The notes beneath the pieces were generated by a model. It was given only the letters and a program-made list of their open reading frames with translations, made no database searches and had not been told where the DNA came from. A DNA stretch of 61,353 nucleotides, counting the filler. It is 5 parts of 5 records of this genome, joined end to end, with 100 filler letters (N's around TTAATTAATTAA, not from the genome) between each part and the next. Parts side by side here need not be neighbours in the genome. Positions count along the whole stretch, not along the records: positions 13,296 to 31,718 come from SRR20825010_5450; 4 more parts are not named here. One strand, written 5' to 3'. This document shows, in pieces, positions 1-31,819 of this stretch; position 1 is the stretch's first letter, and every line of letters starts with the position of its first letter. Made by a program: the position numbers and the translations under genes.

Positions 1-1
1 G

Positions 2-6541: not shown

Positions 6542-6553
6542 CCCCGACGCGCC

Positions 6554-7477: not shown

Positions 7478-7565
7478 ATGAAGCGTGCCCAGGAGACAGT
7501 CGTTGCGTATGCGGGGACTGTCGCCGGGAAATTTGACCGGATCATGGTCGCGTGATGGAAGTGGT

Positions 7566-8306: not shown

Positions 8307-8379
8307 GGTCTAGTGGTTCGGAGAATTCAAACTACCAGATATTAGTGCCGTCAGAGGGCTGCCGGGTCAATGCGGCGCG

Positions 8380-9585: not shown

Positions 9586-9670
9586 GGGTGATCTTCGACA
9601 TGGAGAAAGGCCGCCGCGTGGGCGACCCTTCTTCATAGCGCATTTTTGCACTGCGGTAAAACCGGTTGGT

Positions 9671-10786: not shown

Positions 10787-10845
10787 GGGTCCGGCCTCCT
10801 CGGTGACATCACCCATTTTATACCTTTTCCGGCCGACTTCCGACT

Positions 10846-10858
10846 ATCCGCCGCTTGC
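10846..10858 (-). promoter_or_regulatory. Putative Ada-binding box
   Basis: GCAAG-cgg-CGGAT (minus strand) upstream of a TAAAAT -10-like hexamer (10815-10820); GCAA is the Ada B-box core. Confidence 0.5.
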
Positions 10859-10955
10859 GCGGCAAACCGCGCAATTTTTGTGCGAAAGACGGGCCGGAAG
10901 AGAAAAAGCGAACATTTCATATTTTCAAATGAAAAGAGAAACTTAGTCGTCATTA

Positions 10956-10984
10956 TTGCAATGAAAATGTCACGGTTCTTTCAC
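10956..10984 (+). promoter_or_regulatory. Putative Pho box upstream of ugpB
   Basis: TTGCAAT-gaaa-ATGTCAC-ggtt-CTTTCAC: three heptamers at 11-bp period resembling CTGTCAY; ugp is a classic PhoB target. Confidence 0.55.
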
Positions 10985-11043
10985 CGTTCGGACGTGTGCC
11001 GGGAATAGGGTCGGCGCTCGTATTTCTTCCAACGGAGCCTCTT

Positions 11044-12351: not shown

Positions 12352-12368
12352 CCAGCATTTCTCGTAAG

Positions 12369-12403
12369 AGCGGCGGGCGGTATCGATCGCCCGCCGCTTT
12401 CCT
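12369..12403 (+). terminator. Hairpin between ugpB and ugpA (partial terminator or mRNA stabiliser)
   Basis: AGCGGCGGGCG-gtatcgat-CGCCCGCCGCT followed by TTCCT. Confidence 0.65.
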
Positions 12404-12430
12404 GTTCCGGATCGTCAAGGGAAGTCGCCG

Positions 12431-13195
12431 ATGAAACGGCAGCAATTCGACAGTCTCACCCTGCCGTATCTGCTGATCGCGCCTCAGCTCGCGATCATCT
12501 TTATTTTCTTCGTCTGGCCTGCCGCACAGGCGGTCTACCAGTCCTTCATGCTGGAAGATCCGTTCGGTCTGGCCAGCCAGTTCGTCGGTTTTGATAATTT
12601 CATCGAGGTGGTCTCAAACGAGCATTACGCGCGCTCTGCCCTCTTCACCGCGATTTTCTCCGGGCTGGTCGCCTTTCTCTCCATGGCCATCGCCCTGCTG
12701 CTGGCGGTGAAGGCGGACGGTATCCTGCATGGCCAGTCGGCCTACAAGATCATGCTGACCTGGGTCTATGCGGTCGCTCCGGCGGTTGCCGGCATGATGG
12801 GAGTCTTCCTGTTCGACCGCAGTATTGGCCCGCTCAATCACCTGTTCAACGCCACCGGCTGGCCGTTCAATCCGCAGCTCGACGTGTTCGATGCCTCGGT
12901 GACGGTGATCCTGGTGTCGGTCTGGAAGCAGATCAGCGTGAATTTCATCTATTTCCTGGCCGGTCTGCAGTCTATCCCGCGCGCCGTGCGCGAGGCGGCC
13001 CTGATCGACTGCCGCAACGGCTTCCGCCGATTCTGGACCGTGACCCTGCCGCTCTTGGCGCCGACCGGCTTCTTCGTTCTGGTGATCAACATCACCTATG
13101 CCTTCTTCGAGACCTTCGGCGTGATCGACACGATGACCCGTGGCGCCCCCGGCGGCGGCACGGCGACGCTGGTCTACAAGGTCTATCAGGACGGC
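12431..13195 (+). CDS. ugpA: G3P ABC transporter permease (3'-truncated)
   Basis: PYLLIAPQL, FVGFDNF, LAGLQSIP..EAALID (EAA loop), ITYAFFETFG. Confidence 0.9.
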
Positions 13196-13295
13196 NNNNN
13201 NNNNNNNNNNNNNNNNNNNNNNNNNNNNNNNNNNNNNNNTTAATTAATTAANNNNNNNNNNNNNNNNNNNNNNNNNNNNNNNNNNNNNNNNNNNN
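13196..13295. other. Artificial contig linker
   Basis: N44-TTAATTAATTAA-N44; stop codons in all six frames. Confidence 0.99.
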
Positions 13296-13314
13296 AAACG
13301 TGGAGGGCCACACT

Positions 13315-15729
13315 ATGCAACACCAGAGAAATACAGAAAAATCCATGCGGGCTGAACTGGGGCGCGGTAAGTCGCTGACGGCATCGGCAATCGTACTGGC
13401 GCTAAGTTCAAGCATATCACATCATGCACTTGCGCAAGCCGCGCAGAGCGGCGGAAGCTCGACAAGCGAGTTTGAAATTGAAGAGGTGGTTGTCACGGCC
13501 ACGCGGCGCGAAGCGTCAATCGACAAAGTGCCCATGAGCATCTCGGCCTTCTCGGGCGCTGAGCTTGAAGCCAAAACCATAAAGGCGATTGACGATGTAG
13601 CTCGGTTCACGCCGGGTGTGCACTTCGCCCCTGCAGACGGTTTGGTAAATAGCATCTCCATTCGTGGCGTGGCGTCTGGCGTGGGTGCATCCACAACCGG
13701 TATTTATGTTGACGATACACCGATACAGGTGCGCTCAGGTACCGGTGTGGTGACCGAGACTACCTATCCGCAGATTTTCGATCTCCAGCGCGTGGAGGTT
13801 TTGCGCGGTCCTCAGGGCACATTGTTCGGGACCGGATCCATGGGCGGCACCATTCGCTTCATTACGCCAGAACCCGGGCTCCAGGATTATACCGGGCACG
13901 CCAAAAGCGAGATCAGCACCACCGAAGGCGGCGAAGCGAGTTATGAGATGGGCGCCGCTGTTGGCGGGCCGCTGATTGAAGACAAGCTCGGCTTTCGTGC
14001 CAGCTTGCTTTACCGCAAGGCAGGGGGGTACGTCGACCGCACGCCGTTCACTGGCACTGACGTGACGGAAGAAGACATCAATGCCGACAAAACAGTTGTT
14101 TTCCGTGGAGCCCTCAAGCTTGCGGCAACGGATAATCTGACAATTTCGCCCTCGATCCTCTATCAGGACAGAAACAGCCACGATAGCCACTATTGGAACA
14201 GTCTGTCAGACAGGGATAGCTCGGACTTTGTGACCGGCAATACCCAGGCAGAACCTATTGATGACAAATATTCTCTCAGCGCGCTGAAGATCGAATGGGA
14301 CATCGGCGACATGCAGCTTATTTCAAACACGTCCTATTTTGACCGGAAGCTGGACCGTCTCTCAGACTATTCCAACTTTATCTGGCAGGCCCTTGTGGGA
14401 GACCCGATTCCGGTTGAGCCACTGGCTGAATACCGTGCAGTTTCAAACTCCGGCGTCACCCAGAAAGACTTTACGCAGGAATTTCGTTTGCAATCGGGCG
14501 ATGCCGACAGCCGTTTCAATTGGGTGGTTGGTGCTATTTTCCAGCGCGCGCGTCTGCAAACCTACCAACTTGTTATCGATCCTTTTTTGCCTGAACTGAC
14601 AGACAGCATCTATGGCTGCACACTTGAGGCAGATGATTGTTTTGGTGACGGCCTTGTGGACGGTATCTACAGCGGCACCATTGATCAAACCGCCATCGAT
14701 AAACAGGCAGCAATATTTGGTGAGGCAGAATATGCAATTCTCGACAATCTCAAGCTAACAGTGGGCCTCCGGTATGCCCATACAAAGCTGGATTTTGAGC
14801 GTGAAGTAGCGGGTCCGCTGCTGTGCAGCATCTGTAACAGTCAACCTGAACCCAGCGGCGGTAACACACCGGTTGAAAAACCGCTGACGCCGAAAGTTTC
14901 CCTGAGCTGGGAACCGAGCCTCGACACCACACTTTATGTAACAGCCGGTAAAGGCTACCGGGTTGGCGGCGTGAACTTCGCGCCCACACCGACGGGTAGC
15001 CCTGGTTGCCCTGCAGGAGTGCAGGCACCTGAAACCTATGCGTCAGATGACCTCTGGAGCTACGAAGTTGGCGGTAAAACCAGACTGTCTGGCGGGCGGG
15101 TGAAACTGCAGGGCAGCGCCTACTACATCAAGTGGAATGATGTGCAACAGTATGTCACCAACACCGGGTGTATCACCTCTGCTTACAAAGACAATCTCGG
15201 TACAGTGGAAATCAAGGGCTTTGATTTTGGAGTGTTAGTGCAGCCGGTTGCCAATCTGATACTGGAAGCTTCTGGCAGTTACACTGATGCGCAATATAAT
15301 CAAACGGTCTATGGCGCACCGGACAGTGGTACGGGCGCGCCGACCATTATTGCCAACGACGGGAATTCAACCGGCGTTGCACCATGGAACCTGCAGTTCT
15401 CGGGTCAGTATGATTATACGCTGATGTCAAGGCAGGCGTTTGTGCGGGTCGATTATACCTATGCCTCACGCAACAATGTGAACACACCGGTGCAGGATCC
15501 GCTTACCACCAGCTACGACCCTGATATGTTTACCGATCCTGCCGTTGCCATGTTGGGTGCACGCCTTGGTGTCGCTGTTGGTGCTTTTGACCTGGCAATC
15601 TATGGCACCAACCTTTTGAACAAAAGCCCCGCCATTGGCCGGTACCACGACAGCCTTGGTAGCCCGCTCTATTATTCAACTACCATCAGGCCGCGTACCA
15701 TTGGCCTGAGCGCGGCCGTGCGATTCTAA
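13315..15729 (+). CDS. TonB-dependent outer-membrane receptor
   Basis: EEVVVTATRR TonB-box region, VEVLRGPQGTLFG plug motif, C-terminal PRTIGLSAAVRF; GGAGG RBS before ATG 13315. Confidence 0.93.
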   Translation: MQHQRNTEKSMRAELGRGKSLTASAIVLALSSSISHHALAQAAQSGGSSTSEFEIEEVVVTATRREASIDKVPMSISAFSGAELEAKTIKAIDDVARFTPGVHFAPADGLVNSISIRGVASGVGASTTGIYVDDTPIQVRSGTGVVTETTYPQIFDLQRVEVLRGPQGTLFGTGSMGGTIRFITPEPGLQDYTGHAKSEISTTEGGEASYEMGAAVGGPLIEDKLGFRASLLYRKAGGYVDRTPFTGTDVTEEDINADKTVVFRGALKLAATDNLTISPSILYQDRNSHDSHYWNSLSDRDSSDFVTGNTQAEPIDDKYSLSALKIEWDIGDMQLISNTSYFDRKLDRLSDYSNFIWQALVGDPIPVEPLAEYRAVSNSGVTQKDFTQEFRLQSGDADSRFNWVVGAIFQRARLQTYQLVIDPFLPELTDSIYGCTLEADDCFGDGLVDGIYSGTIDQTAIDKQAAIFGEAEYAILDNLKLTVGLRYAHTKLDFEREVAGPLLCSICNSQPEPSGGNTPVEKPLTPKVSLSWEPSLDTTLYVTAGKGYRVGGVNFAPTPTGSPGCPAGVQAPETYASDDLWSYEVGGKTRLSGGRVKLQGSAYYIKWNDVQQYVTNTGCITSAYKDNLGTVEIKGFDFGVLVQPVANLILEASGSYTDAQYNQTVYGAPDSGTGAPTIIANDGNSTGVAPWNLQFSGQYDYTLMSRQAFVRVDYTYASRNNVNTPVQDPLTTSYDPDMFTDPAVAMLGARLGVAVGAFDLAIYGTNLLNKSPAIGRYHDSLGSPLYYSTTIRPRTIGLSAAVRF

Positions 15730-15743
15730 AAGGGAAGGCAACG

Positions 15744-17396
15744 ATGATGATGAAGTTCTTGCAAAACAAATCGCATAGAGGCGTCAGGCACTGGCGTCGC
15801 TATCCAGCGTTGGTGTCTTTCCTGTTGGCAAGTCTTACTGGCCTTGGAGTATCGGCAGCCCAAGTTCGGGGGCATGAGCCAATATATGCTCAAACCGAGC
15901 AGGGACGAGTTGAAGGCCAGGTGCTGGATAAGGTCAATGCGTTCCGGGGTATCCGATATGCTGCGCCGCCAGTGGGGACGCTCAGATTTCAGCCGCCCAC
16001 GCCTGCCATTGCATGGCGGGGCACACGTCCGGCGCTTGATTTTCCGCCCGCATGTCCGCAAGTGCCGTCCGATGACGACACGGAGGACAGCGATGTTTTC
16101 ATGGCCGAAGACTGTCTTGGTCTCAATATCTGGACCCCGGCGGTAGACGGCGAGAAACGACCCGTGCTGGTGTGGATCCATGGTGGCGGTTTTGTCGTCG
16201 GGTCCACGGAAAGCAGTTGGTACAATGGCGCCAATCTGGCTGCACGGGGCGATGCTGTGGTTGTTTCAATCAACTACCGCTTGGGTGCGTGGGGCTTTCT
16301 GGCGCTGGGCCCGATGGGTGATGAGCGATACAGGGAAAGCGCCAATGTGGCGCTGCTTGATCAAATCGCCGCGCTTGCATGGGTGCGTGACAATATCGCC
16401 AATTTTGGGGGTGACCCGAACAGTGTAACGATATTTGGCGAGTCAGCCGGCGCAGCGAGCGTGGGTGATCTGTTGGCCATGTCACAGGCAGAGGGGCTGT
16501 TCCATAAGGCTATTCTCCAAAGTGGTGGTCCTATGCGGGATGCAGGACGTACGGACCGTGCGGTCGCTCTATCCAAGCGTTTCCTTGCCATCGCCGGGGC
16601 AAAATCGGCTGACGATATGCTCAAGCTATCCATGGAAGATTTGCTCGTAGCGCAGGAAAAACTATTCTCCGAAAGTGCAGATGTCGGCACCTTTGGCCCA
16701 TTGGTAGATGGCGTGGTGATAAAAGAAGCGCCATTTAAGACCCTGCGGGAAGGCCGGGGACATCATGTGCCGGTACTGGTGGGTACTACGTCTGAGGAAA
16801 TGCGATATTTTGTCAGTGCGATAGAAAGCGACCTCGGTGATAAACCGGCGGATCTGCTTTTGGAACAAATGACAGATATCGCTGGCACGCGGGCCCAAAG
16901 CATCATTGATGTGTACCAGCGCGAATATCCGGAGTGGGTCGATACGGTCATCCAGATAGGGTCAGACGCTTTTCTTCGGCTTCCGGCTATCGACCTTGCC
17001 GAGATGCTACGCCAGACCCAGCCGGTTTATATGTATCTGTTCAACTACCGGTCCAATTCCACACACAAGAATTACGGGGCCGCCCATGCCATGGATATCC
17101 CGTTCGTTTTTGGGGTGCTGGATGACCCAAGTGTCATTCAGTTCACGGGAGATGATCCGAGACGAGAGCGCATTGCCGAACAAACGATGGACGCTTGGGT
17201 ATCCTTCGCCAGAAATGGTGACCCAACGATCTCGGGTGGCCCTGATTGGCCGGTGTATGAACCCAGCACCCGACAAACCATGGAATTTGGGCCTGATATG
17301 CGTCTGGTATCCGACCCGCTTGCAGCGCAACGCAAGGTTTGGGGCGATGCCCGGGCGACGGTTGAGCAGGCGTGGACTCTCATGAACGACAACTGA
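15744..17396 (+). CDS. Type-B carboxylesterase, probably exported
   Basis: FRGIRYA, EDCLGLNIW, HGGGF, FGESAG nucleophile, GTTSEE, AAHAMDIPFVFG; hydrophobic N-terminal leader. Confidence 0.92.
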   Translation: MMMKFLQNKSHRGVRHWRRYPALVSFLLASLTGLGVSAAQVRGHEPIYAQTEQGRVEGQVLDKVNAFRGIRYAAPPVGTLRFQPPTPAIAWRGTRPALDFPPACPQVPSDDDTEDSDVFMAEDCLGLNIWTPAVDGEKRPVLVWIHGGGFVVGSTESSWYNGANLAARGDAVVVSINYRLGAWGFLALGPMGDERYRESANVALLDQIAALAWVRDNIANFGGDPNSVTIFGESAGAASVGDLLAMSQAEGLFHKAILQSGGPMRDAGRTDRAVALSKRFLAIAGAKSADDMLKLSMEDLLVAQEKLFSESADVGTFGPLVDGVVIKEAPFKTLREGRGHHVPVLVGTTSEEMRYFVSAIESDLGDKPADLLLEQMTDIAGTRAQSIIDVYQREYPEWVDTVIQIGSDAFLRLPAIDLAEMLRQTQPVYMYLFNYRSNSTHKNYGAAHAMDIPFVFGVLDDPSVIQFTGDDPRRERIAEQTMDAWVSFARNGDPTISGGPDWPVYEPSTRQTMEFGPDMRLVSDPLAAQRKVWGDARATVEQAWTLMNDN

Positions 17397-17572
17397 GACA
17401 ATGTAACCCCCGGGACAGGCAAGCCTGATTGTGAAGGTACGATTGAGCGTTTCACATCGGCTTGCCTGAAACTGGCTTTCAAACAGTTGCCGGTCACTTG
17501 TCCGGTGGCCACCAGTTGGTGTGGTGCCGGTTTTACGGCAGTCACCTTATCTTACCAGCACAGAGTATCTAT

Positions 17573-19012
17573 ATGTTGAACACTCAGACCAGTGACGGGC
17601 CCAAGACACTTTATGACAAGCATATTGATGCTCATACAGTATGTAGTCTGGACGATCAGGGCCACGTCCTTCTCTATGTCGACCGGCAGGTGCTGAACGA
17701 ATACACCAGCCCGCAGGCTTTCAGCGGAATTCGGGACGCGGAACGAAGCGTTTGGCGGCCCAACACCTCACTCGCTGTTGTTGATCATGTGAATTCAACG
17801 TCTGCTGAGCGTAGACAAGTGCGCCGCGGGGACAACGGTGTCCTGCAAATCGAATATTTGCGGAAAAACTGCGAAGACTATGGCATTGAGCTTTTTGATA
17901 TTCTCGACAAGAGGCAGGGAATTGAGCATGTGGTTGCCCCAGAGCAAGGGTTTATCCTGCCTGGTATGGTGGTAGCCGCTGGTGACAGCCATACCACAAC
18001 ATACGGAGCGTTGGGGGCTTTCGGGTTTGGCATTGGTACGTCTGAGATTGAACATCTGCTGGTGACGCAAACCCTTGTTTACAAGCGCCTCAAAACCATG
18101 CGGATCACCATATCGGGAAGGCTGCCCATTGGTGTTACGTCGAAAGACATCATCATGGCTGTGATCCGCAAGATCGGAGCCTCGGGTGCGTCAGGGTACG
18201 CGGTAGAGTTCGCGGGCTCCCTCATTCACGACCTGAGCGTTGAGGCGCGCATGACCATATGCAACATGGCGGTTGAAGCTGGTGCGCGCGGTGCTTTCAT
18301 GGCGCCAGACGAGAAAGTTTTCCAGTATCTTAAGGCAACGCCGCGCGCGCCTCGGGGGCTGGATTGGGAAAGGGCGGTCACAGCTTGGCGAGCCTTGCGG
18401 TCTGACGATCAGGCTGTTTTTGATCGGGAGGTATATCTTGATGCTGAAGATGTGGAGCCGATGGTCTCCTGGGGCACCAGCCCGGATCAGGTAGCAGGCA
18501 TTGATGGTGCGGTGCCTGGCCTGCGTGCAGGCGCGGAAGGCGGTATAAACCATAATATGGAGCGCGCCCTAAGCTATATGGGATTGAGCCCTGGTCAGCC
18601 GCTCGCCGGTGTGCCGATAACTCACGCTTTTATCGGTTCCTGCACTAACGCTCGCATCGAAGACCTGCGCGATGTGGCCCGTGTTGTCCGTGGCCGGAAG
18701 GTCGCAACGGGTGTGAGGGCTATCATTGTGCCAGGGTCCACCCAGGTGAGAGAACAGGCAGACGCAGAAGGGCTGGCCGGGATTTTCATTGATGCGGGAT
18801 TTGAGTGGCGACAGTCCGGCTGCTCCATGTGTCTTGCGATGAATGATGATGTTCTGGGCCCAGGCGACCGCTGTGCCTCCAGTACCAATCGCAACTTCGA
18901 AGGCAGGCAAGGCGCTGGTGCACGCACCCATCTCATGAGCCCCGCCATGGTGGCGGCAGCGGCTGTTAAAGGCCATATTTTCGATGTGCGCAAACTGGAA
19001 AGGGCTGATTGA
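17573..19012 (+). CDS. LeuC-family (aconitase superfamily) [4Fe-4S] hydro-lyase large subunit, divergent paralog
   Basis: TLYDK, TSPQAF, GDSHT, GIGTSE, FIGSCTN, GCSMCLAMN, SSTNRNFEGRQG; several substrate-pocket motifs differ from true LeuC. Confidence 0.9.
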   Translation: MLNTQTSDGPKTLYDKHIDAHTVCSLDDQGHVLLYVDRQVLNEYTSPQAFSGIRDAERSVWRPNTSLAVVDHVNSTSAERRQVRRGDNGVLQIEYLRKNCEDYGIELFDILDKRQGIEHVVAPEQGFILPGMVVAAGDSHTTTYGALGAFGFGIGTSEIEHLLVTQTLVYKRLKTMRITISGRLPIGVTSKDIIMAVIRKIGASGASGYAVEFAGSLIHDLSVEARMTICNMAVEAGARGAFMAPDEKVFQYLKATPRAPRGLDWERAVTAWRALRSDDQAVFDREVYLDAEDVEPMVSWGTSPDQVAGIDGAVPGLRAGAEGGINHNMERALSYMGLSPGQPLAGVPITHAFIGSCTNARIEDLRDVARVVRGRKVATGVRAIIVPGSTQVREQADAEGLAGIFIDAGFEWRQSGCSMCLAMNDDVLGPGDRCASSTNRNFEGRQGAGARTHLMSPAMVAAAAVKGHIFDVRKLERAD

Positions 19013-19013
19013 T

Positions 19014-19619
19014 ATGGCTGGGTTCAAGGTAGAGAACGGTGTGATTGCGCCCATGTTGGCGGAAAATATCGATACCGATGTCATCATGCCCAAGCAGTTC
19101 CTCAAGGGTATTGACCGCAAAGGTCTGGACCAGGGTATCTTTTTTGATCAACGATTTCTGGCCGGAGGCGTCCCAAACCCTGAATTTGTTCTCAACCGAA
19201 CAGAATGGACTGCCGCGAAGTTTTTGGCTGTTGGGCCTAATTTTGGCTGTGGCTCTAGCCGTGAACATGCTGTCTGGGGCCTTAAGCAACTTGGTGTCCG
19301 TGCGCTGATAGGCACCAGTTTTGCCGGTATTTTTTTTGATAACAGCCAACGTAACGGTCTGTTGCTCATCGAACTGCCGGTTGCTGATTTTGAACGTGTT
19401 GCCGCCGTGGCCAACGAGGGGGAGCAGGAAATTGCGATAGACCTTCCCAAGCAGACTATCCGTCTTGCAGCCGGCGAAGAGGTGTCATTTGAGATTGAAA
19501 CGCTTCGAAAACAAGCGCTGCTTCAGGGCGGAGACGCTATCGCCCATACATTGCGCCTAACCCCTCATATCCGGACTTTTGAGGCGCGGCATTTTCGAGA
19601 AAACCCTTGGCTTTCGTGA
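19014..19619 (+). CDS. LeuD-family hydro-lyase small subunit
   Basis: NIDTDVIMPKQFLK, NFGCGSSREHAVW, SFAGIFFDN; starts 2 bp after the large-subunit stop. Confidence 0.9.
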   Translation: MAGFKVENGVIAPMLAENIDTDVIMPKQFLKGIDRKGLDQGIFFDQRFLAGGVPNPEFVLNRTEWTAAKFLAVGPNFGCGSSREHAVWGLKQLGVRALIGTSFAGIFFDNSQRNGLLLIELPVADFERVAAVANEGEQEIAIDLPKQTIRLAAGEEVSFEIETLRKQALLQGGDAIAHTLRLTPHIRTFEARHFRENPWLS

Positions 19620-19649
19620 GCAGTTTTCATGCTGGACGCTTGGTTCAGT

Positions 19650-20579
19650 TCAGGTTGGGTTCTTGGTGCGCCATGGCACCGGCGTAAGCGCCGCTTTCAT
19701 CAGACGCAGAAACTCACTGACACGCGCTGTTTTTTCTTCTCTGGCCCCCAAAAGGGCAACAATGTCGGCGGTTGGAAGTTGATAGTCCGGCAATATGCGA
19801 ACCAGTCTCTTTGACCTGAGATCATCGACCACGTCCCATTCGGATCGCAAGATTATGCCCAGCCCTTCTTCCGCCCAAAGGCGGGTCGATTCTCCATCAT
19901 TACTCGAAAACTGTGATGCAAGCCGCACTTGCTGGTGCGCGCCGGATACATCAGCAAACGAGACAAGGGTAACGTCCTCGTCATTCTGGCGCAAAGCGAT
20001 GAAATCGTGGTTCACCAGGTCTTCGGGCGATGCAGGTGTTCCTCTTTCATTGATATAGGCGGGTGCGGCGCATAGGTATCGCTCGTTCGGTGCCAGGCGA
20101 TGCATAATGCGTGAAGAATCTTTCAGTTCGCCAATGTGAATGGCGATATCCCATGTGTCCTCCATGGCCTGAGCGGGGCGCTCAGTGAGTGTGAGGCTTA
20201 TTTTGACGTGCGGGTTATTTCGCCGGAAAGAAGCGGCGAGCGGCGCCACATATCGCCTACCAAACCCAAGTGGCGCGATAATTCTCAAGTGCCCACCAAC
20301 TTCTTCACGGCGGGCGCTCAGCGTTTCGGATATATCGTCCAGTTCCGCCACTAGCCGCTGTGCGCGCTCAAGCAAAAAAGCCCCTTCGTCTGTTAGCCTC
20401 AGGCCGCGGGTGGTTCGGTCTATCAGGCGAAGTTGCAGCCGTTTTTCCAGTGAACGCAAGCGCTGCGTCACAGCGGAGGGGGTGACATCGAGCGCTCTGG
20501 CAACAGCTGCAAGTGACTGCGCAGACGACACCGCCACAAAAAACCGCATATCCTCAAGGGACAATGTGTTGCCAGCCAT
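19650..20579 (-). CDS. LysR-family regulator (CrgA-like effector domain)
   Basis: SLAAVARALDVTPSAVTQRLRSLEKRL..RLIDRTTR..LTDEG. Confidence 0.92.
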   Translation of the reverse strand: MAGNTLSLEDMRFFVAVSSAQSLAAVARALDVTPSAVTQRLRSLEKRLQLRLIDRTTRGLRLTDEGAFLLERAQRLVAELDDISETLSARREEVGGHLRIIAPLGFGRRYVAPLAASFRRNNPHVKISLTLTERPAQAMEDTWDIAIHIGELKDSSRIMHRLAPNERYLCAAPAYINERGTPASPEDLVNHDFIALRQNDEDVTLVSFADVSGAHQQVRLASQFSSNDGESTRLWAEEGLGIILRSEWDVVDDLRSKRLVRILPDYQLPTADIVALLGAREEKTARVSEFLRLMKAALTPVPWRTKNPT

Positions 20580-20619
20580 AAGATCTCCTGTGTTACCCAC
20601 ATTGTAGCATGATCAGCCT

Positions 20620-22194
20620 TCAGAAGACGCCTAGTCTGATAATCAGCAACAAAGCTGTCGTTATCAGCACAACGCCGATGAGATTTAGGGCAAAACCCGC
20701 ACGTGTCATCTCTGAAACGCTAACCCATCCGCTGCCATATACAATGGTGTTTGGGGGCGTGGCCACCGGCAGCATGAATGCAAACGAAGCAGACAGGGTG
20801 GCGGGTACCATCAGGAAGAGCGGATCAAAACCGCTGGCGACAGCGACCGCACCGATAATGGGCAATATCATGGTTAGCGTTGCGGTATTGGATGTCAGTT
20901 CTGTCAGGAAGGTGATGAAAAGGCATGTCAGCAGAATGGCGCCTGCGACCGGCAGGACACCGAGGCTGTTAAGGTGAATGCCGATCCATTTATCAAGCCC
21001 GGTTTCTGCAAAACCAGCAGCGAGCGAAAACCCGCCGCCAAAAAGCAGCAGGATACCCCATGGTACGCGGTCCTGAACGGTTTGCCAGTCCAGTAGAAAA
21101 TACTCCCGGCGGTCCCCCAACTGAATACCCTTCTTAAGGCTGACAGGTAGCAACATAAGAAGTATTCCCATCGCCATGGCTACAGTTGCATCCTGAATAT
21201 GGCCGGGCTGCGGGAAGGCTTCGGCCCAGCCTGGTATGGTGAAGGCGCCGAGGTCAATTGGTGAACGGAATGTCCAGAGAAGGGCGGTGCCCGCAAAGAT
21301 GCTGCCGATGATTTTTTCTGGGCGGGAGAGCTTGCCCATGGCGGTCAGTTCTTCAGACATCACCGACGATATAGTGGTGTGCATCTGTATTCTGCCAACA
21401 GAAACTGGCGCGGCAAACCGGCAGAGATAAAGCCAGACAAGAGGCAGGAAAATGCATACAAGCGGCACCGCGAACAGCATCCAGCGGAAGAAGGAAACCG
21501 GCTCGCGCTCAGGATATAGGTTGCTGAAAAAGCCGGAGAAAACAATGTTTGCCGGTGTGCCAATCAAAGTGCCCACCCCGCCAATGCTTGCGGCGTAGGC
21601 CAGGCCCAGCATAAGCGTAAGGCCGAGGCTTTTCTGGACCTCGGCGTCGGTGTTGTCGCTTTTTTTACCGTCAATGGAGGCGCCAACGGACACCTGCCGC
21701 ACCACAGCCATCGCGACGGGAAGCATCATCATGGTCGTTGCTGTATTCGATATCCACATGGACAGGAAAGCCGACGCAACCATAAAGCTGAGCACGATCT
21801 TTTGTGGATTGGTGCCAATCGCGGAAATGCACCATACGGCCAAACGTTTGTGAAAGTTCCATTTCTCCATAGAGAGGGCAATCATGAAACCGCCAAGAAA
21901 CAGAAACACAAGATGGTTGGTATAATTGGGGGCAACCTGTTGGCTGGACATGATGCCAAGTGCCGGAAAGAGGATCAGGGGCAGGAGCGCGGTGACAGAA
22001 ATGGATATGCCGCCACCCATCCACCAGAAAGCCATCAGGGCAACAGTGGCCAGCAGCTTTTGAGCTGGCACAGTCATGCCGTCGGGCTGTGGCATCAATA
22101 GAATGGCGCAAAACAAAACAGCGCCCAGGATCAGGACTGTCAGTTGTCGCGTGAAATCTTTTCGGGCTTTTAGGGCGGCTTGAGCCTTATCCAT
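20620..22194 (-). CDS. DASS/SLC13 Na+:di/tricarboxylate symporter
   Basis: Both carboxylate-binding SNT motifs (SMWISNTAT, TELTSNTAT); GTLIGTPAN, AFMLPVATPPN. Confidence 0.92.
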   Translation of the reverse strand: MDKAQAALKARKDFTRQLTVLILGAVLFCAILLMPQPDGMTVPAQKLLATVALMAFWWMGGGISISVTALLPLILFPALGIMSSQQVAPNYTNHLVFLFLGGFMIALSMEKWNFHKRLAVWCISAIGTNPQKIVLSFMVASAFLSMWISNTATTMMMLPVAMAVVRQVSVGASIDGKKSDNTDAEVQKSLGLTLMLGLAYAASIGGVGTLIGTPANIVFSGFFSNLYPEREPVSFFRWMLFAVPLVCIFLPLVWLYLCRFAAPVSVGRIQMHTTISSVMSEELTAMGKLSRPEKIIGSIFAGTALLWTFRSPIDLGAFTIPGWAEAFPQPGHIQDATVAMAMGILLMLLPVSLKKGIQLGDRREYFLLDWQTVQDRVPWGILLLFGGGFSLAAGFAETGLDKWIGIHLNSLGVLPVAGAILLTCLFITFLTELTSNTATLTMILPIIGAVAVASGFDPLFLMVPATLSASFAFMLPVATPPNTIVYGSGWVSVSEMTRAGFALNLIGVVLITTALLLIIRLGVF

Positions 22195-22245
22195 GATGCG
22201 GTCCGTTGATGCGTTTGAACTGGTGGTGATGGATGGCGCGCACCG

Positions 22246-23580
22246 CTAGTGCCCTTCGGTCTCATTGATCAGCCGGTATAGCAGGAGGGCGGCGCGTTTG
22301 GTGGCCAGTGGAAGTGACGTGAGGTCAAGCTGTTCCTGTGGCGAGTGCGCGCCAGCGCCGTAGCCGCCCAGCCCGGCAAGGGCATCTGTATGAGGGGCGA
22401 CAAATGAGATATCCGCCGCGCCGCGCCTCAACGGGTCAAGTTTATGCATCTTACCCTCGCCAAGTGCCTCGTTGATGTCGGATAGCTTTTGATAAAGTTT
22501 CATGTTGCCCTTGGTTGGGGCCATGGCCGGATAGCCTTCTGTGAAGGTGATGGTAGCGTCTGTTTTGGGCAGGTGACGGGCGACAATCGCGCGCATTGCT
22601 GCTTTGGTGCTTGATGTTTGCTCCTCCGAGACGGTGCGCATTTCTCCGCGTGCCACTACCTTCCGGGCAATGACATTTGCTTTACCAAATACTGTGCCGC
22701 TGACGTTTTCGCTCGCGCAGGCCTGGCTTGCTTCCGTGCCGCCAGCCAAAGTGCCCACATTGAAGGTGAGATATTTTTCCTTGTGCAATGTGGTGTAAAA
22801 TTCGCTCAGAATGCGGGTGGCTTCAAAAACCGCGCCGGCACCGTGTTTCTCGCTAAAAATAAGGAATGAATGCGCCTGTTCGCCAGTGACTTCAAGGCAC
22901 CAGGCTGTATATCCGCGGCGTGAAACGGTCGCCCAGTCACCTGCCTCATCACGAATGCCATGCTCGAAACCGAGCGCCACATCTGCCCATAAACCGGCCT
23001 CAATCAACCCTTGTCGCGTTGTGGCCAAGGGGGTGCCTGGCGCTTCCTCGTCCCCCGAAAACACAATCTTTATGCGGGCGGTATCTAACGCACCGACGGC
23101 AAAAAGAGCTTTGAGGGCTTGCACGATGATGACGTTTCCCGACTTCATATCAAGCACGCCGGGCCCGACGGCACGGTTGCCGTCACGCACATAGGTCTGG
23201 AAGGCATCGCCGGGTTCAAAAACCGTGTCCAGATGGCCAATAAGCAGGATCTTCCTGCCGGTTGTTCCCTCGTGGTTGGCGTAGAGGTGACCAGCTCTTT
23301 GCATGGCTGGTGGCAGCTCTGCCCAGTTGAGCGCAAACCCAAGCGGGGATAGCTCACCGGCCAGATGGTCCGCTGCTGCTTTTACACCGGCCGGGTTCAT
23401 GGTGCCGCTGTTGATGTTTACCAAGTTTTCAAGCAAGGCCAGCCCTTCGTCACTATGCTGGTCGATCCATTCAATGATCCGGCGTTCGTTTTTGGAGAAT
23501 GCCGATTGGGCGTGTGCAGCCGGGTTTGCGGCAACACTCATCGACATGATCAGAAATAGCATTAAAACGAGTTTGGACAT
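22246..23580 (-). CDS. Exported M20 metallo-amidohydrolase (carboxypeptidase G2-like)
   Basis: Signal peptide ending AHA; NINSGT, GHLDTVF, GPGVLDMKSG, GDEE, GAHSPQE. Confidence 0.88.
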   Translation of the reverse strand: MSKLVLMLFLIMSMSVAANPAAHAQSAFSKNERRIIEWIDQHSDEGLALLENLVNINSGTMNPAGVKAAADHLAGELSPLGFALNWAELPPAMQRAGHLYANHEGTTGRKILLIGHLDTVFEPGDAFQTYVRDGNRAVGPGVLDMKSGNVIIVQALKALFAVGALDTARIKIVFSGDEEAPGTPLATTRQGLIEAGLWADVALGFEHGIRDEAGDWATVSRRGYTAWCLEVTGEQAHSFLIFSEKHGAGAVFEATRILSEFYTTLHKEKYLTFNVGTLAGGTEASQACASENVSGTVFGKANVIARKVVARGEMRTVSEEQTSSTKAAMRAIVARHLPKTDATITFTEGYPAMAPTKGNMKLYQKLSDINEALGEGKMHKLDPLRRGAADISFVAPHTDALAGLGGYGAGAHSPQEQLDLTSLPLATKRAALLLYRLINETEGH

Positions 23581-23673
23581 ATGAAGCTCCACCAAGTGAC
23601 CCTCCAGGCATGGAAGGCTAAATGTGAAGCCTATTGGTGGCTCAATTGGTAAATCAATGTCTCGTTTGTGATA

Positions 23674-23700
23674 CAATCATGCACGTTTTGTGTATAATTG
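23674..23700. promoter_or_regulatory. Imperfect palindrome, probable LysR operator of the M20-DASS operon
   Basis: CAATCATGCAC-gtttt-GTGTATAATTG (9 of 11 arm positions complementary). Confidence 0.5.
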
Positions 23701-23707
23701 TGCGCCG

Positions 23708-24619
23708 CTATCCGATATGGGCGGCGCGAAAGTGATTTTCCAGAAATTCGAGGCAGACTTTCAGTTTGGCTGAAAGAGACCGCCGCGTTGGATAAACGCC
23801 CCACACAGGCGCATTCTGTACATAGTCAGGTAATACGTGCACAAGGTCGCCCTCATCCAGCGCTTTCTGAATATCCCACTGGGATCGCAGCATGATGCCG
23901 TGCCCGTCCAGTGCCCAACCCGTAACAATCTCACCAAAATTGGAAGACATGGTGCCGTTTACCTTTACGCTTTGGGTTTTGCCCTTTGAAGTAAGATGCC
24001 AGGCGTCAAAGGGATCGCTCCGCTCCTTGATCAATAAGCAGTTATGCGTCCGCAGGTCAGAGAGAACCTCAGGTGTACCTCTTTCTGCAAGGTAAGCAGG
24101 GGATGCGCATAATATGCGGTGATTGTCCAACAGCTTGGTCGAGATATATTGCTCAGGCAGATCGTCCCCAATGCGGATTTCCAGATCAAACTCATCGCGG
24201 ATGATGTCAACAGGCCGGTCAAAAAGCTCAAGGTGAAATTCCATCTGTGGATAGCTCTGTGCCATCCGTGAAACCGCTGGGGCAACGTGAATTCTGCCAA
24301 AGCCGAAGGTGCTGCATATCCTGATCAGGCCTTTCGGCGAAGTTTTTGCCTGCGATAGCTCGCTCACCATGTCGTGCAGGTCTCCCAGTATCAGGGCGGC
24401 TCTGTGCTGCATCTTTTCACCTTCATCGGTGAGGGCAATTTGGCGGGTAGACCGGTGCAAGAGCTTGGCTTTTACAGTTTGTTCCAGCACTTTGATGCGT
24501 TTGCTCACATAGGCGGGGGACTGTCCAAGTTCAGCCGCCGCCTCCACAAAGCTGTGTTTGCGTAAAACTGTCAGGAAAACTCTCAGGTCTTCCGGGTAAG
24601 GTAATTGTTCACGTTTCAT
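23708..24619 (-). CDS. LysR-family regulator, DmlR/TtdR-like
   Basis: LPYPEDLRVFLTV...ELGQSPAYVSKRIKVLEQ, RICSTFGFGRIHVAPA, WGVYPTRRSLSAKLKVC resemble D-malate/tartrate-responsive LysRs. Confidence 0.85.
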   Translation of the reverse strand: MKREQLPYPEDLRVFLTVLRKHSFVEAAAELGQSPAYVSKRIKVLEQTVKAKLLHRSTRQIALTDEGEKMQHRAALILGDLHDMVSELSQAKTSPKGLIRICSTFGFGRIHVAPAVSRMAQSYPQMEFHLELFDRPVDIIRDEFDLEIRIGDDLPEQYISTKLLDNHRILCASPAYLAERGTPEVLSDLRTHNCLLIKERSDPFDAWHLTSKGKTQSVKVNGTMSSNFGEIVTGWALDGHGIMLRSQWDIQKALDEGDLVHVLPDYVQNAPVWGVYPTRRSLSAKLKVCLEFLENHFRAAHIG

Positions 24620-24745
24620 AAATTAAAAGACCACGGTATGCGGGTTTTATTTGCAATTGGGAAACTATAGCATGTTGAAGTGCGGCCTCAAGCCAGAAGA
24701 GGTATGATGCCGAAGGATAGGCTGCAGACGCTTTCAGGAGCCCCA

Positions 24746-25627
24746 ATGTTCACGAAATTCAAGAGCCGGTATTATGAGGTCAACGACATCAAAATTCATT
24801 GCCGGATCGGCGGCAGTGGCCCGGCACTGGTGTTGTTGCATGGGCATCCACAAACTCATTTCATCTGGCACAAGATAGCCGATACCTTGGCGCTTGATTA
24901 TACGGTTGTGGCACCTGATCTGCGTGGATATGGCGACAGTGATAAGCCGGACGCTTCTGGCGATGCGCATACCTATTCAAAGCGGACCATGGCACTGGAT
25001 GTGGTCAGCCTTATGCAAACGATTGGTTTTGAACAGTTTTGCGTGTTGGCGCATGATCGGGGTGCGCGGGTTGCCCACCGTCTGGCTGTTGACCATCCCA
25101 CGGCTGTGCAGAAGATGATACTCCTAGACATCGCGCCGACGCTTGCGATGTATGAGCAAACGAATGAAGATTTCGCCAGAGCATATTGGCACTGGTTTTT
25201 CCTCATCCGTCCCGCACCTCTGCCTGAAACCCTGATTGAGGCCGACCCTGAAGGGTATCTCCGGAGTGTGATGGGAACACGGAGCGCGGGTATGTCGCCG
25301 TTTACGGATAGTGCGTTTGCTGAATATCTGCGATGTCTGGCGCAGCCTGGCGCGGCGCGAGGGATTTGTGAAGACTACCGGGCCAGCGCAAGCATCGACC
25401 TTGACCATGAGCGGGCGGATATCGCTGCTTCCCGGCGGCTCACATGCCCCTTGCTTGTTTTGTGGGGTAGAGATGGTGCAGTTGGTCGCTATTTTAAGCC
25501 GTTGAAGGAATGGAAAAAAATAGCAACAGATGTTGAAGGAGAGGCTTTGCCCTCCGGGCACTATATCCCCGAAGAAGTGCCAGATCTTCTCCTTGAGAAG
25601 ATGCGTCATTTTATGGCGCGGGAATAG
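24746..25627 (+). CDS. Alpha/beta hydrolase of the fluoroacetate-dehalogenase / trans-epoxysuccinate-hydrolase clade (293 aa)
   Basis: HGHP(H34), HDRGAR (D104,R105,R108), D128, YWHW (Y147,H149,W150), EDY211R, GH272YIPEE; AGGAG RBS. Confidence 0.88.
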   Translation: MFTKFKSRYYEVNDIKIHCRIGGSGPALVLLHGHPQTHFIWHKIADTLALDYTVVAPDLRGYGDSDKPDASGDAHTYSKRTMALDVVSLMQTIGFEQFCVLAHDRGARVAHRLAVDHPTAVQKMILLDIAPTLAMYEQTNEDFARAYWHWFFLIRPAPLPETLIEADPEGYLRSVMGTRSAGMSPFTDSAFAEYLRCLAQPGAARGICEDYRASASIDLDHERADIAASRRLTCPLLVLWGRDGAVGRYFKPLKEWKKIATDVEGEALPSGHYIPEEVPDLLLEKMRHFMARE

Positions 25628-25823
25628 AATGATCGGTGCATTCAGCCCGCTATCTGCCGGGAGAAGAGCACCAGTCCGATATGCCCTGAAGTAGGGTGAT
25701 GCTTTCTGGTGTTTTCAGGTGATTGAGGCATCCGGAAACTGCGACGCAGCGTTTGGCGATTTCTCACCTACCCCTTAATGTGGCCGCATGAAGTCTGGGA
25801 CGGCAAGCAGAGGGTGTTTGCCT

Positions 25824-27386
25824 TTACCATTCCACAATCTTCATCTGGCGGTTAACTGCCATGGCATGCGTACGGATACCGGGCGAAACCATCACCGGCA
25901 CATCGGCCCATTCGAGGATCGGCATATCCGCGTGATGGTCGCTATAGAAGGAGATAAACACCTGCTCACGTGTACGTGCGTCACCTTTTAGAACCACATC
26001 GCGAAGGCGGAGATACTTGCCGCTACCGTAACAATTGTCGCCGGCAATCCGTACGGGGGTCGTATCCCCTTCGGTATAGGTGGTTTTTGTACACACAAGG
26101 TGATCGAACCCGAGGCCATCGGCCATATGCCTGGCGTAGAGGTCGATGCTGGCGGTCGCAAGCACCATGGTGTCGCCTTCCATCTTGTGCATGGCGAGCG
26201 CTAGCATGCAGCCATCTCGCAAGCCGTCCTCAAGTATACTTGTGGCAAACCTACGGGCTGCCGCTTCAATCTCAGAAGGTGTCATGCCCCGGAAGGTTAT
26301 CGCGAGCATGCGGTTTTTTAGTTCAAGCCTTGAAATACCCCCCGCTTTATAGAGCGCCATATGCCGCAACAATCGCAGCATCAAAAACATGCGAGCGATC
26401 ATGCCCTTACGGGTGGATAGTAGAAACGGCGTGAAGGTGCCGTACCGGGTAAGGGTGCGGTCAAGGTCGAAAACAGCGAAACTTTCGCGTGTTTTCTCAG
26501 CTCCTTTTCCAGGCTTTTGTGTTGTTCCCTGCCGTGCCTTTAGAATAGCTTCTGCCGCGATGAAGTCGTCAGGCTTGTCAACATCCATTGCGGCTTCAGC
26601 GTCCTGCAACAGGTGCTGTTTGATAGGACAGCCGATGATATGCGATGCTCGGGCGAAACCTTGCGACAGGCTAAAACGCCTGAGCGCCATCCCAAGCGTG
26701 GTACTCCACCCGAAAGCCCGCAAAATACGCCAGGGACGCTTGCGGTTGGCTTCAATTGCCTGCCAGAAGTCAAGTGCAGCGCCTGCGTTTTCTCCGCGCA
26801 GATAAAAGAGATTGGCCCCGGATACGGCGTCATCACCGAAGCGGTAATAGGTACGTCTGCTTTCAGGGTATTTTTCGTCAATGGTGGTTTTGCTGACCAG
26901 GCCTACTGAGAAGCCTTCATGCTGCGCGGCGCTTCCGATGAAAGTGCGCACTGTCTCTGGCTTCAACAGTGGATTGTCAGCCGTGGTAATCAACGCCGCA
27001 CCACCAGCCCTTGAAAAAGCTGCTTTTGCGCTGCCGCAGACACTGGTTTGTGCAGACACATGACAAAGCGGCACGCCCTCCGCCGCGGCTATGATATCGG
27101 CGTTGCCGGTCAGGTTATGCTCTGACGTGATCACGATTTCATTGATTAAGCCAGATCGGACAAGAGCCCGAACGACATGCGCGAGCATAGGTTTGCCTGC
27201 GATCATGGCCGCCGCTTTTCCGTGGCGTGTCTTTAACTGCTGAAGTGCGTCTGACTCCGGCCGTCGTCCGGCCAGGATAATTGCAGTACAGGCTTGGGGC
27301 GCAAAGGCGCACGGCTGGGTGACCATGCTCTCTAGCTCCAGGTCAGCGCTCGCAAGGTCGCTACTTAGCGTCATGCTGTCATGCAT
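25824..27386 (-). CDS. Fusion of MobA-like NTP transferase and HAD-IB phosphatase
   Basis: N-half IILAG, KAAAMIAGKPML, TTADNPLL, MDVDKPDD; C-half FDLDRTL, LATAS, GSGK, YSDHHADMPIL; GAGGAG RBS. Confidence 0.8.
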   Translation of the reverse strand: MHDSMTLSSDLASADLELESMVTQPCAFAPQACTAIILAGRRPESDALQQLKTRHGKAAAMIAGKPMLAHVVRALVRSGLINEIVITSEHNLTGNADIIAAAEGVPLCHVSAQTSVCGSAKAAFSRAGGAALITTADNPLLKPETVRTFIGSAAQHEGFSVGLVSKTTIDEKYPESRRTYYRFGDDAVSGANLFYLRGENAGAALDFWQAIEANRKRPWRILRAFGWSTTLGMALRRFSLSQGFARASHIIGCPIKQHLLQDAEAAMDVDKPDDFIAAEAILKARQGTTQKPGKGAEKTRESFAVFDLDRTLTRYGTFTPFLLSTRKGMIARMFLMLRLLRHMALYKAGGISRLELKNRMLAITFRGMTPSEIEAAARRFATSILEDGLRDGCMLALAMHKMEGDTMVLATASIDLYARHMADGLGFDHLVCTKTTYTEGDTTPVRIAGDNCYGSGKYLRLRDVVLKGDARTREQVFISFYSDHHADMPILEWADVPVMVSPGIRTHAMAVNRQMKIVEW

Positions 27387-28737: not shown

Positions 28738-28876
28738 ACCGATTTTCAAGCACCGATGCCAAGGGCGGGGCAAAGAGAACCGACTTTCATGACAAAAAAC
28801 AAATCTTTGCCAAATGTTGCCGTCAGCTAACCCGTTTAGCGTGCGCCTGGTTCGTGATTTTTATGAGGAAAACCCA

Positions 28877-29395: not shown

Positions 29396-29422
29396 CCCTT
29401 AACCGTGAGAGCGGAACTTCTT

Positions 29423-30100: not shown

Positions 30101-30110
30101 GGAGCAATCG

Positions 30111-31505: not shown

Positions 31506-31512
31506 TTACTAT

Positions 31513-31818: not shown

Positions 31819-31819
31819 A

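Follow-up and report, generated by a model that had tools for sequence, protein, structure and literature searches.

The second contig of a 61,353-nt stretch of DNA (hereafter the window) carries a group of nine genes, and we are highly confident that four of them, encoding a LysR-type regulator (LysR 2), a FAcD-type alpha/beta hydrolase and paralogs of the isopropylmalate isomerase subunits LeuC and LeuD, form one module of tartrate-type dicarboxylate metabolism. A carrier gene of the DASS family (20620-22194) probably serves this module. The specific pathway suggested by gene context and stereochemistry, running from trans-epoxysuccinate through meso-tartrate to oxaloacetate, has in our judgement an even chance of being right. 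All nine genes sit on the one contig (18,423 bases), which is 99.994% identical over 18,116 bases to G001, a complete 4.18-Mb genome. As a sequence comparison gave no counterpart in G001 for the other four contigs of the window, and only the second contig matches, the true surroundings of the cluster were taken from G001 and not from the joined stretch.

Gene identities were assigned by Pfam and NCBIfam profile searches, and each of the nine genes of the initial annotation was found in its place. The reading frames had been listed with starts that are too early, and an alignment of relatives together with the start-codon listing points to ATG codons at 13315, 17573, 19014, 23580 and 24746 as the likely starts. 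The LeuC paralog (17573-19012, plus strand) is the large subunit of an aconitase-family [4Fe-4S] hydro-lyase, scoring 771.6 against a cut-off of 531 with NF009116, and is our proposed meso-tartrate dehydratase together with the LeuD paralog, its small subunit (19014-19619, plus strand; NF002458, 214.2 against a cut-off of 167). The hydrolase (24746-25627, plus strand) has an Asp nucleophile and the signatures HGHP and DRGARVAHR, and is the proposed trans-epoxysuccinate hydrolase. Divergent from its gene lies that of LysR 2 (23708-24619, minus strand), a TtdR-like regulator that we also count among the core.

The pairing of the hydrolase with the LeuCD paralog recurs across genomes. Within the G001 family (a sample of 45 genomes), paralogs were called at 57-73% identity to the cluster LeuC, housekeeping copies lying at 50-53%. 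A LeuC paralog of at least 57% identity is present in 11 of the 44 other genomes; all 11 loci were examined, and the hydrolase gene directly adjoins the LeuCD paralog in 10 of them, the exception being G020. Two arrangements account for these ten: in five the hydrolase gene is convergent with LeuD, and in the other five it shares the strand of LeuC and immediately precedes it. One genome, G018, retains the full set of nine, rearranged and with identities of 62-75%. The grouping of the nine genes is far beyond chance.

The same linkage is seen well outside this family. When an alignment of the hydrolase was run against one genome per species, 34 of the best 80 loci (57-73% identity) had a LeuC paralog within 10 kb, or 35 if L087 is included, where the first 177 LeuC residues are present before the contig ends; nine of the remaining 45 loci end at a contig edge. 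The linked loci come from Pseudomonas, Rahnella, Ewingella, Cupriavidus, Comamonadaceae and metagenome-assembled genomes (MAGs), and fall into four gene orders: hydrolase, LysR and then LeuD and LeuC on the opposite strand in Pseudomonas; LysR, LeuD-LeuC and hydrolase in Rahnella and Ewingella; LysR divergent from hydrolase-LeuC-LeuD in Comamonadaceae; and LysR divergent from LeuC-LeuD-hydrolase in Cupriavidus and Comamonas. Ten genomes in which the hydrolase was unlinked were searched whole, and in six the LeuCD paralog and its LysR gene were found elsewhere. Two plasmid matches, H1 (Comamonadaceae) and H32 (Pantoea), had no LeuCD genes. Clustering of neighbouring open reading frames (ORFs) was noisy in this high-GC DNA owing to antisense ORFs, and yielded lineage synteny only. 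One locus titled Gordonia sp., an actinobacterium (L048), carries hydrolase, DctA-type carrier, LysR and LeuD-LeuC genes at 55-73% identity in the Pseudomonas order, and looks like contamination or a recent transfer. Another, in G027 (L018 5447-13948), has the hydrolase-LeuCD genes without a LysR gene, with malate synthase G, an isocitrate lyase family gene and a ScfR/RamB-type regulator as neighbours.

Whole-family counts agree with the locus survey and add an asymmetry to it. Among 251 genomes of the Pseudomonas-type family, the hydrolase is found in 54, the LeuC paralog in 20 and both in 16, so that the hydrolase occurs in 16 of 20 genomes with the paralog as against 38 of 231 others; in 12 of the 16 the two lie within 5 kb. 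Similarly, in the Burkholderiaceae-type family (198 and 199 genomes with scores, three and two without), where the paralog is present in 53 genomes and the hydrolase in 124, the hydrolase occurs in 51 of the 53 paralog genomes and in 73 of the 146 others, and the genes are adjacent in 19 of the 53. The paralog is thus seldom without the hydrolase, whereas the hydrolase is often without the paralog, which fits a scheme in which the hydrolase comes first and LeuCD is one of several outlets.

The LeuCD paralog is not the leucine-pathway copy, a conclusion that rests on the presence of leuCDB elsewhere in G001, on a fully supported clade and on altered motifs. The claim that the cluster genes are divergent holds in that LeuC is 51% and LeuD 38% identical to the housekeeping copies of G001, yet each still scores above the cut-off of its LeuC or LeuD model; the LeuC paralog also passes TIGR00170 (634.9 against 560.25). 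Like isopropylmalate isomerase, the paralog keeps the three cluster cysteines (Cys394, 454 and 457 in ORF numbering) and the GSSRE motif of LeuD. Unlike it, the LeuC paralogs form a separate clade, in which 29 sequences from Alpha-, Beta- and Gammaproteobacteria group together with a support of 1.0 against nine housekeeping copies of the same taxa, and neither leuB nor leuA adjoins the cluster copy. Furthermore, 21 LeuC and six LeuD columns cleanly discriminate paralogs from housekeeping copies. In LeuC, HEVTS becomes NEYTS, PDHNVPT becomes VDHVNST or VSHIIPT, and STHGAF becomes TTYGAL; in LeuD, LKSIKRTGFG becomes LKGIDRxGL, GSSREHAPWA becomes GSSREHAVWG, and SFADIF becomes SFAGIF or SFGEIF. 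The initial annotation had further stated that no leuA, leuB or fluoride exporter gene lies on the contig. This is correct for the 18.4 kb only; at genome scale, G001 has a housekeeping leuC-leuD-leuB set at 1.27 Mb, and its sole CrcB gene lies about 690 kb from the cluster. In the LeuC tree, the copies of the window and of G018, both from a family that we take to be alphaproteobacterial, group within gammaproteobacterial paralogs (Pseudomonas, Rahnella), apart from the other alphaproteobacterial subgroup, and a transfer of the module between bacterial classes is probable.

A second recurrent partner of the hydrolase is tartrate dehydrogenase. A LeuB-like gene is present in 7 of the 36 full-length hydrolase loci without LeuCD; the three such genes that were tested all pass the tartrate dehydrogenase equivalog model TIGR02089 (568.7, 546.9 and 543.8 against 470.4 bits), and one scores 1.7e-158 against 3flk, a solved tartrate dehydrogenase/decarboxylase. 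Genes passing this model occur in 61 of the 251 Pseudomonas-type genomes, 25 of 54 with the hydrolase as against 36 of 197 others. The gene lies beside that of the hydrolase in 15 of the 54, in 14 of which both genes share a strand and the dehydrogenase gene stops fewer than 30 bp short of the hydrolase gene, the fifteenth having a LysR gene between the two; in the five loci examined, a LysR gene is divergent from the tartrate dehydrogenase-hydrolase pair. Taking both partners together, the hydrolase is within 5 kb of a TIGR02089 gene or LeuCD paralog in 27 of the 54 hydrolase genomes. Enzymes of the tartrate dehydrogenase type act on 2R-hydroxy dicarboxylates, including D-malate, and convert meso-tartrate by decarboxylation to D-glycerate. 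In contrast to these operons, G001 has no tartrate dehydrogenase, and the LeuCD paralog stands in its place: G001 has just two Iso_dh-family genes, leuB and one other that we take to be isocitrate dehydrogenase, and therefore lacks a tartrate or D-malate dehydrogenase that could use the product. Two gammaproteobacterial MAG loci (L052 2891-10873, and also L029) have the hydrolase gene with those of a TonB receptor, a 370-residue protein, a PrpD/MmgE-family protein, a polysaccharide-deacetylase-family protein and an MBL-fold protein, followed by an IS481-type transposase; the PrpD/MmgE-family protein may be a third kind of partner dehydratase.

The transport genes found with the module point to an anionic dicarboxylate, rather than a haloacetate, as the substrate, because three unrelated types of carboxylate uptake system occupy the same position. 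Among 52 LeuC-paralog loci, TctC genes are found in nine, DctA-type genes in four and DASS genes in three, and one Paraburkholderia replicon is annotated as LysR, divergent from alpha/beta hydrolase, leuC_2, leuD_2 and a dicarboxylate/amino acid:cation symporter. In the window, the DASS sodium:anion symporter gene (20620-22194, minus strand), for which we propose inner-membrane dicarboxylate uptake, passes TIGR00785 (237.8 against a cut-off of 198.6) and matches PF00939 at 264.6 bits; homologs lie beside the module in G018 (71%), G003 (39%) and L027 (41%). As for regulation, LysR 2 scores 362.7 bits with the TtdR model NF007315 over residues 5-299, below the cut-off of 398, and by this measure is a near relative of TtdR and not an equivalog. 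Its homolog is present in 39 of the 52 LeuC-paralog loci and remains with LeuCD even where the hydrolase lies elsewhere. The recurrent adjacency in several gene orders and bacterial orders, the dicarboxylate carriers embedded in the module and the operon of the hydrolase with a tartrate dehydrogenase equivalog elsewhere together support the central idea of the initial annotation, namely that the hydrolase and then LeuCD act on an imported C4-dicarboxylate under a TtdR/DmlR-type regulator.

The hydrolase itself belongs, by sequence, to the FAcD family. Among solved proteins it matches 9c9f best (8.8e-120 over residues 30-312, with about 65% identity in the printed alignment), an entry named fluoroacetate dehalogenase, and then RPA1163 (3r3u; 7e-76) and 1y37 (4.2e-74). 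Across 11 hydrolase relatives of 46-100% identity, the alignment shows HGHP (HGHPQT), HDRGARVAHR, YWHWF, EDYRA and GHY to be invariant. The accessible part of one study separates FAcDs from epoxide hydrolases by DRXXRXXXR and a non-aromatic X in HGXP (PMC7429986), and the HGHP and DRGARVAHR of the hydrolase place it with the FAcDs. The two aromatic residues of canonical epoxide hydrolases are both absent, X of HGXP being His and the nucleophile Asp being followed by Arg. Canonical epoxide hydrolases also have a ring-opening pair, Tyr-Tyr or, in the Cif type, His-Tyr. The His of YWHW and the Tyr of EDYRA are conserved, as judged by comparison of sequences, and FAcDs are described as near relatives of the Cif-like His-Tyr epoxide hydrolases in the text available from PMC8244358. 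The family is large, with 7,975 of 8,000 scored candidates passing an E-value of 1e-60, and linked and unlinked members are interspersed in the hydrolase tree. Public names of relatives are 'alpha/beta hydrolase' and 'haloacetate dehalogenase' (JGI), while the LeuCD paralogs are named '3-isopropylmalate dehydratase'. The linkage to the LeuCD paralog, to carboxylate transporters and to the tartrate dehydrogenase operon makes a (2R)-hydroxy dicarboxylate the most likely product. The carriers, the tartrate dehydrogenase operon and the distance of 690 kb to CrcB in G001 argue for a role in dicarboxylate metabolism rather than in fluoride release.

In the pathway that we propose, an alpha-activated C4-dicarboxylate, most likely trans-2,3-epoxysuccinate, would enter through the DASS symporter. 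An FAcD-type Asp would be expected to attack the carbon next to a carboxylate and displace the leaving group with inversion, giving a 2-hydroxy acid; here it would attack C2, the ring would open with inversion, and hydrolysis of the enzyme ester would release meso-tartrate (2R,3S). The Fe-S LeuCD paralog would then eliminate water in the anti sense, as LeuCD does on (2R,3S)-3-isopropylmalate, to give cis-enol-oxaloacetate and, by tautomerization, oxaloacetate, with LysR 2 sensing a tartrate-type intermediate. The stereochemical part of this argument is our own derivation. A trans-epoxide opened in the anti sense yields the meso diol, and meso-tartrate (2R,3S) would be the exact analogue of (2R,3S)-3-isopropylmalate, with OH replacing isopropyl. 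It should also be the only tartrate isomer that can be dehydrated by an enzyme forming a cis-dicarboxylate alkene, L-tartrate requiring the trans (fumarase-type) geometry, and it is the only candidate product that leads to central metabolism through both partner enzymes, to oxaloacetate with one and to D-glycerate with the other. D-malate would be productive with the dehydrogenase only, a gene that G001 does not have.

Several observations weigh against this interpretation. The genomes compared are related and so not independent, and the counts are given without a P value. Many hydrolases have no visible partner: four of the ten unlinked-hydrolase genomes searched whole have no LeuCD paralog, 38 of the 54 Pseudomonas-type hydrolase genomes have no LeuC paralog, and 19 of these 54 lack both the paralog and a TIGR02089 gene. 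Conversely, the hydrolase was not found, at the thresholds used, in 4 of 20 Pseudomonas-type and 2 of 53 Burkholderiaceae-type genomes with the paralog. Sequence rules class the hydrolase as a fluoroacetate dehalogenase, and it has about 65% identity with a solved protein that bears this label; the location of the G027 hydrolase-LeuCD pair next to isocitrate lyase and malate synthase G would also suit a haloacetate dehalogenase that forms glycolate. Finally, we know of no source of free trans-epoxysuccinate in the sea.

The other genes of the cluster form an outer layer whose connection to the module is looser. The first encodes a TonB-dependent outer-membrane receptor (13315-15729, plus strand) with Plug and beta-barrel Pfam domains, an accessory gene whose tie to the module is lineage-specific; siderophore and B12 receptor models (TIGR01783 or specific models) all fell far below their cut-offs, the best reaching 102.7 against 223.5. 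Next is an exported type-B carboxylesterase, also accessory (15744-17396, plus strand; PF00135, 406.8 bits), for which the closest proteins of solved structure are Est50 (1.6e-101), pNB esterase and fumonisin B1 esterase (1.1e-67). A second LysR-type regulator, LysR 1 (19650-20600, minus strand; HTH_1 and LysR_substrate domains), is an accessory gene probably tied to those of the receptor and esterase, and scores 175 bits with the TtdR model and 173 with the YafC model, both below cut-off. The fourth, an exported M20 metallohydrolase (22246-23580, minus strand; Peptidase_M20 and M20_dimer domains), is accessory with a weak tie to the module. It falls below the cut-off of the glutamate carboxypeptidase model NF004788 (165.6 against 349), its nearest structure is carboxypeptidase G2 (9e-26), and membership of the M20 superfamily is all that these matches establish. 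The receptor, the esterase and the M20 protein each have a hydrophobic N-terminal leader ending in an Ala-x-Ala-like site, as judged by eye, and the last two resemble generic enzymes only.

The initial annotation had assigned the receptor, esterase and M20 protein to the uptake and cleavage of conjugates, with E-64-type inhibitors as candidates. Support for this is weak. Receptor, esterase and LysR 1 genes accompany the module in G001, G018 and the MAG locus L087, and in these three only. Receptor homologs are 69% (G018) and 54% (L087) identical, esterase homologs 67% and 56%, and LysR 1 homologs 75% and 59%; in L087 the LysR 1 gene lies directly upstream of receptor-esterase-hydrolase-LeuC, all on one strand. 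The M20 gene is found with the module in G001 and G018 only, and none of the 80 closest metagenome M20 loci (43-58% relatives; many on short contigs) contains any other gene of the set, a result that counts against the accessory layer. In our estimate it is slightly the better bet that, while the core functions as proposed, the receptor, esterase, LysR 1 and M20 genes are unrelated neighbours in a region where receptors and hydrolases acting on peptides and D-amino acids abound. The absence of the module from those 80 M20 loci, the lack of all four genes at most module loci and the gene content upstream in G001 favour this explanation; set against it are G018, which keeps all four genes despite rearrangement, at 62-75% identity, and the one-strand arrays of L087 and L027. 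The L027 array reads DASS-receptor-hydrolase-SNF-LeuC-LeuD-ACAD-amidohydrolase, with a different TonB receptor and an amidohydrolase of the Amidohydro_1 type. With L087 and the TonB receptor and deacetylase genes of L052, this shows marine lineages repeatedly adding outer-membrane uptake and hydrolases, a hint of larger precursors. As a weak inference, the four genes may release the acid from larger esters or amides. Fungi build the (2S,3S)-epoxysuccinate warhead of E-64-type inhibitors from fumarate, according to the accessible part of PMC12568646, and E-64-type compounds are a possible source of the acid. The full scheme, in which this FAcD clade is the trans-epoxysuccinate hydrolase, the LeuCD paralog the missing meso-tartrate dehydratase, and both are coupled here to the uptake and consumption of epoxysuccinyl (E-64-type) inhibitors or their esters, we consider quite improbable.

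Three other explanations concern the core reaction. It is possible, if unlikely, that the hydrolase acts on a different 2,3-epoxy or alpha-activated polycarboxylate (cis-epoxysuccinate, an alkyl-epoxysuccinate or a tricarboxylate, for example) and that the LeuCD paralog isomerizes or dehydrates the resulting substituted tartrate or malate. Gene context shows only that the product suits enzymes of the LeuCD, tartrate dehydrogenase and, in L052, PrpD types; TctC receptors accept many carboxylates, and the LeuC pocket motifs are altered. However, a compact module of two enzymes and a regulator needs a central metabolite as its end product, and enzymes for a substituted oxaloacetate are not conserved nearby. 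Furthermore, by our own derivation, cis-epoxysuccinate would give D- or L-tartrate, neither of which has the geometry for a hydro-lyase that forms a cis-alkene.

Distinctly unlikely, in our view, is the same module working on a different leaving group, with L-2-halosuccinate or another 2-substituted succinate converted to D-malate and the LeuCD paralog acting as a maleate hydratase/D-malate dehydratase on a D-malate pool sensed by the DmlR-like LysR. The hydrolase carries every FAcD motif, net inversion would give the 2R acid and the dicarboxylate carriers fit; moreover, tartrate dehydrogenase-type enzymes take D-malate, and two-subunit maleate hydratases resembling LeuCD exist. However, the step from D-malate to maleate is a dead end without maleate isomerase, none of which was seen in the annotated loci, and G001 has no third Iso_dh-family gene for the oxidation of D-malate. 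We know, too, of no natural source of halosuccinate. Finally, that dehalogenation of fluoroacetate or haloacetate is the true role of the hydrolase, that its proximity to LeuCD reflects no shared pathway and that the nine genes are a mosaic is very improbable: the solved relatives are deposited as fluoroacetate dehalogenases, JGI uses the name haloacetate dehalogenase, many hydrolase loci have neither partner and glyoxylate-shunt genes adjoin in G027, but the two adjoin in at least four gene orders and across Alpha-, Beta- and Gammaproteobacteria, where chance would place the genes within 10 kb in a 5-Mb genome less than about 1% of the time, the carriers are of dicarboxylate and not monocarboxylate types, the second recurrent partner is tartrate dehydrogenase, and the only CrcB gene of G001 is 690 kb away.

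The surroundings of the cluster were also surveyed. The window joins five contigs (1-13195, 13296-31718, 31819-48022, 48123-55136 and 55237-61353), separated by linkers of N runs around TTAATTAATTAA at 13196-13295, 31719-31818, 48023-48122 and 55137-55236. Their GC fractions are, in order, 0.62, 0.54, 0.39, 0.54 and 0.54, and the assembly looks like a mixed culture or bin. The 20 kb upstream of the cluster in G001 hold another TonB receptor, two Amidohydro_3 genes, two beta-lactamase-family genes and a DUF1611 gene, and an AsnC gene lies in the same region. A sequence of 82 bases across the start of the TonB receptor gene (13296-13377) has a 96% identical copy some 12 kb upstream in G001 (L005 9163-9244), ahead of an Amidohydro_3 gene. 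Beyond the hydrolase gene are a fused nucleotidyltransferase-HAD hydrolase gene (25824-27422, minus strand) and an overlapping 464-residue ORF without a Pfam match (27379-28773, minus strand), followed by a PepSY gene and a two-component pair (28814-31505); relatives of the genes at 25824-31505 were not seen adjoining the module in the other loci examined. At its end the contig holds the C-terminal part of a transposase/integrase reading frame (31520-31690), a sequence also present in G001 (L007 1-600) that probably accounts for the contig break. A promoter and terminator scan of 13296-26000 gave no signal, with seven and 15 sites against 8.7 and 12.6 expected.

Comparison with known systems places the module between several of them. 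The hydrolase shares with the fluoroacetate dehalogenases (RPA1163, FAcDEX-FA1 and DehH1; 3r3u, 1y37 and 9c9f) their fold and sequence family, the His-Asp-Arg set, DRXXRXXXR, YWHW, EDY and GH, but its clade differs in lying in operons with the LeuCD paralog, tartrate dehydrogenase and dicarboxylate carriers, none of which has a role in the breakdown of fluoroacetate. The closest functional parallel would be trans-epoxysuccinate hydrolase (EC 3.3.2.4, 'tartrate epoxidase'), in the reaction predicted and in the presence of the hydrolase gene in tartrate-type operons of Pseudomonas-family genomes. The other partner in those operons, tartrate dehydrogenase/decarboxylase (TIGR02089; 3flk), resembles the LeuCD paralog in being an alternative partner of the same hydrolase clade and itself a paralog of a leucine-pathway enzyme. 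The E. coli ttdR-ttdAB-ttdT system also combines a TtdR-type LysR regulator, a carrier and a two-subunit Fe-S hydro-lyase (here predicted) that takes tartrate to oxaloacetate; it differs in that the isomer we predict is meso- and not L-tartrate, and in that a hydrolase would feed the pathway. The dehydratases also differ in ancestry, TtdAB belonging to the class I fumarase family and the cluster enzyme to the aconitase/LeuCD family. The cis-epoxysuccinate hydrolases (CESH), bacterial enzymes that open epoxysuccinate to tartrate (accessible parts of PMC6429283 and PMC10869282), act on the other substrate isomer and form D- or L-tartrate. Their folds are not known to be related to that of the hydrolase.

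That the cluster is undescribed, as the initial annotation had it, holds for the literature searched, in which no open paper on these genes was found, but the hydrolase gene may already be in print. Reportedly, Allen and Jakoby described tartrate epoxidase in 1969 in a fluorescent pseudomonad studied for tartrate metabolism, and an enzyme from Pseudomonas koreensis has reportedly been cloned; P. koreensis DSM 16610 carries the module (L051). A tartrate epoxidase activity in a fluorescent pseudomonad is cited in the accessible part of a preprint (bioRxiv 10.1101/198481). The hydrolase-tartrate dehydrogenase operon of Pseudomonas-family genomes would fit that history. In the literature searched, which took in few subscription journals, we found no gene for trans-epoxysuccinate hydrolase or meso-tartrate dehydratase, nor this gene pair, and trans-epoxysuccinic acid appeared only as a reagent or as the E-64 warhead. 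Nor did anything relevant turn up there on 9c9f, on LeuCD-like maleate hydratases or on the action of tartrate dehydrogenase on meso-tartrate and D-malate. The accessible part of the CESH paper PMC6429283 has no mention of trans-epoxysuccinate, meso-tartaric acid or TESH. The hydrolase of PMC13230308 is a different protein of 29.5 kDa. The folds are known and so is the reaction of the first step, and the function of the LeuCD paralog is probably new.

In summary, both trans-epoxysuccinate hydrolase and meso-tartrate dehydratase have been described as activities in pseudomonads for decades, and, if the core of our proposal is true, this cluster would supply genes for the hydrolase and for a dehydratase specific to meso-tartrate. 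With the latter, the aconitase/LeuCD family would gain a new function, and there would then be a full set of tartrate dehydratases, each specific to one isomer. Many database entries now named 'haloacetate dehalogenase', 'alpha/beta hydrolase' or '3-isopropylmalate dehydratase' would then need re-examination, which bears on bioprospecting of the family for defluorination. Furthermore, the same core would provide a bacterial route for consuming the fungal epoxysuccinate warhead of E-64-type inhibitors.

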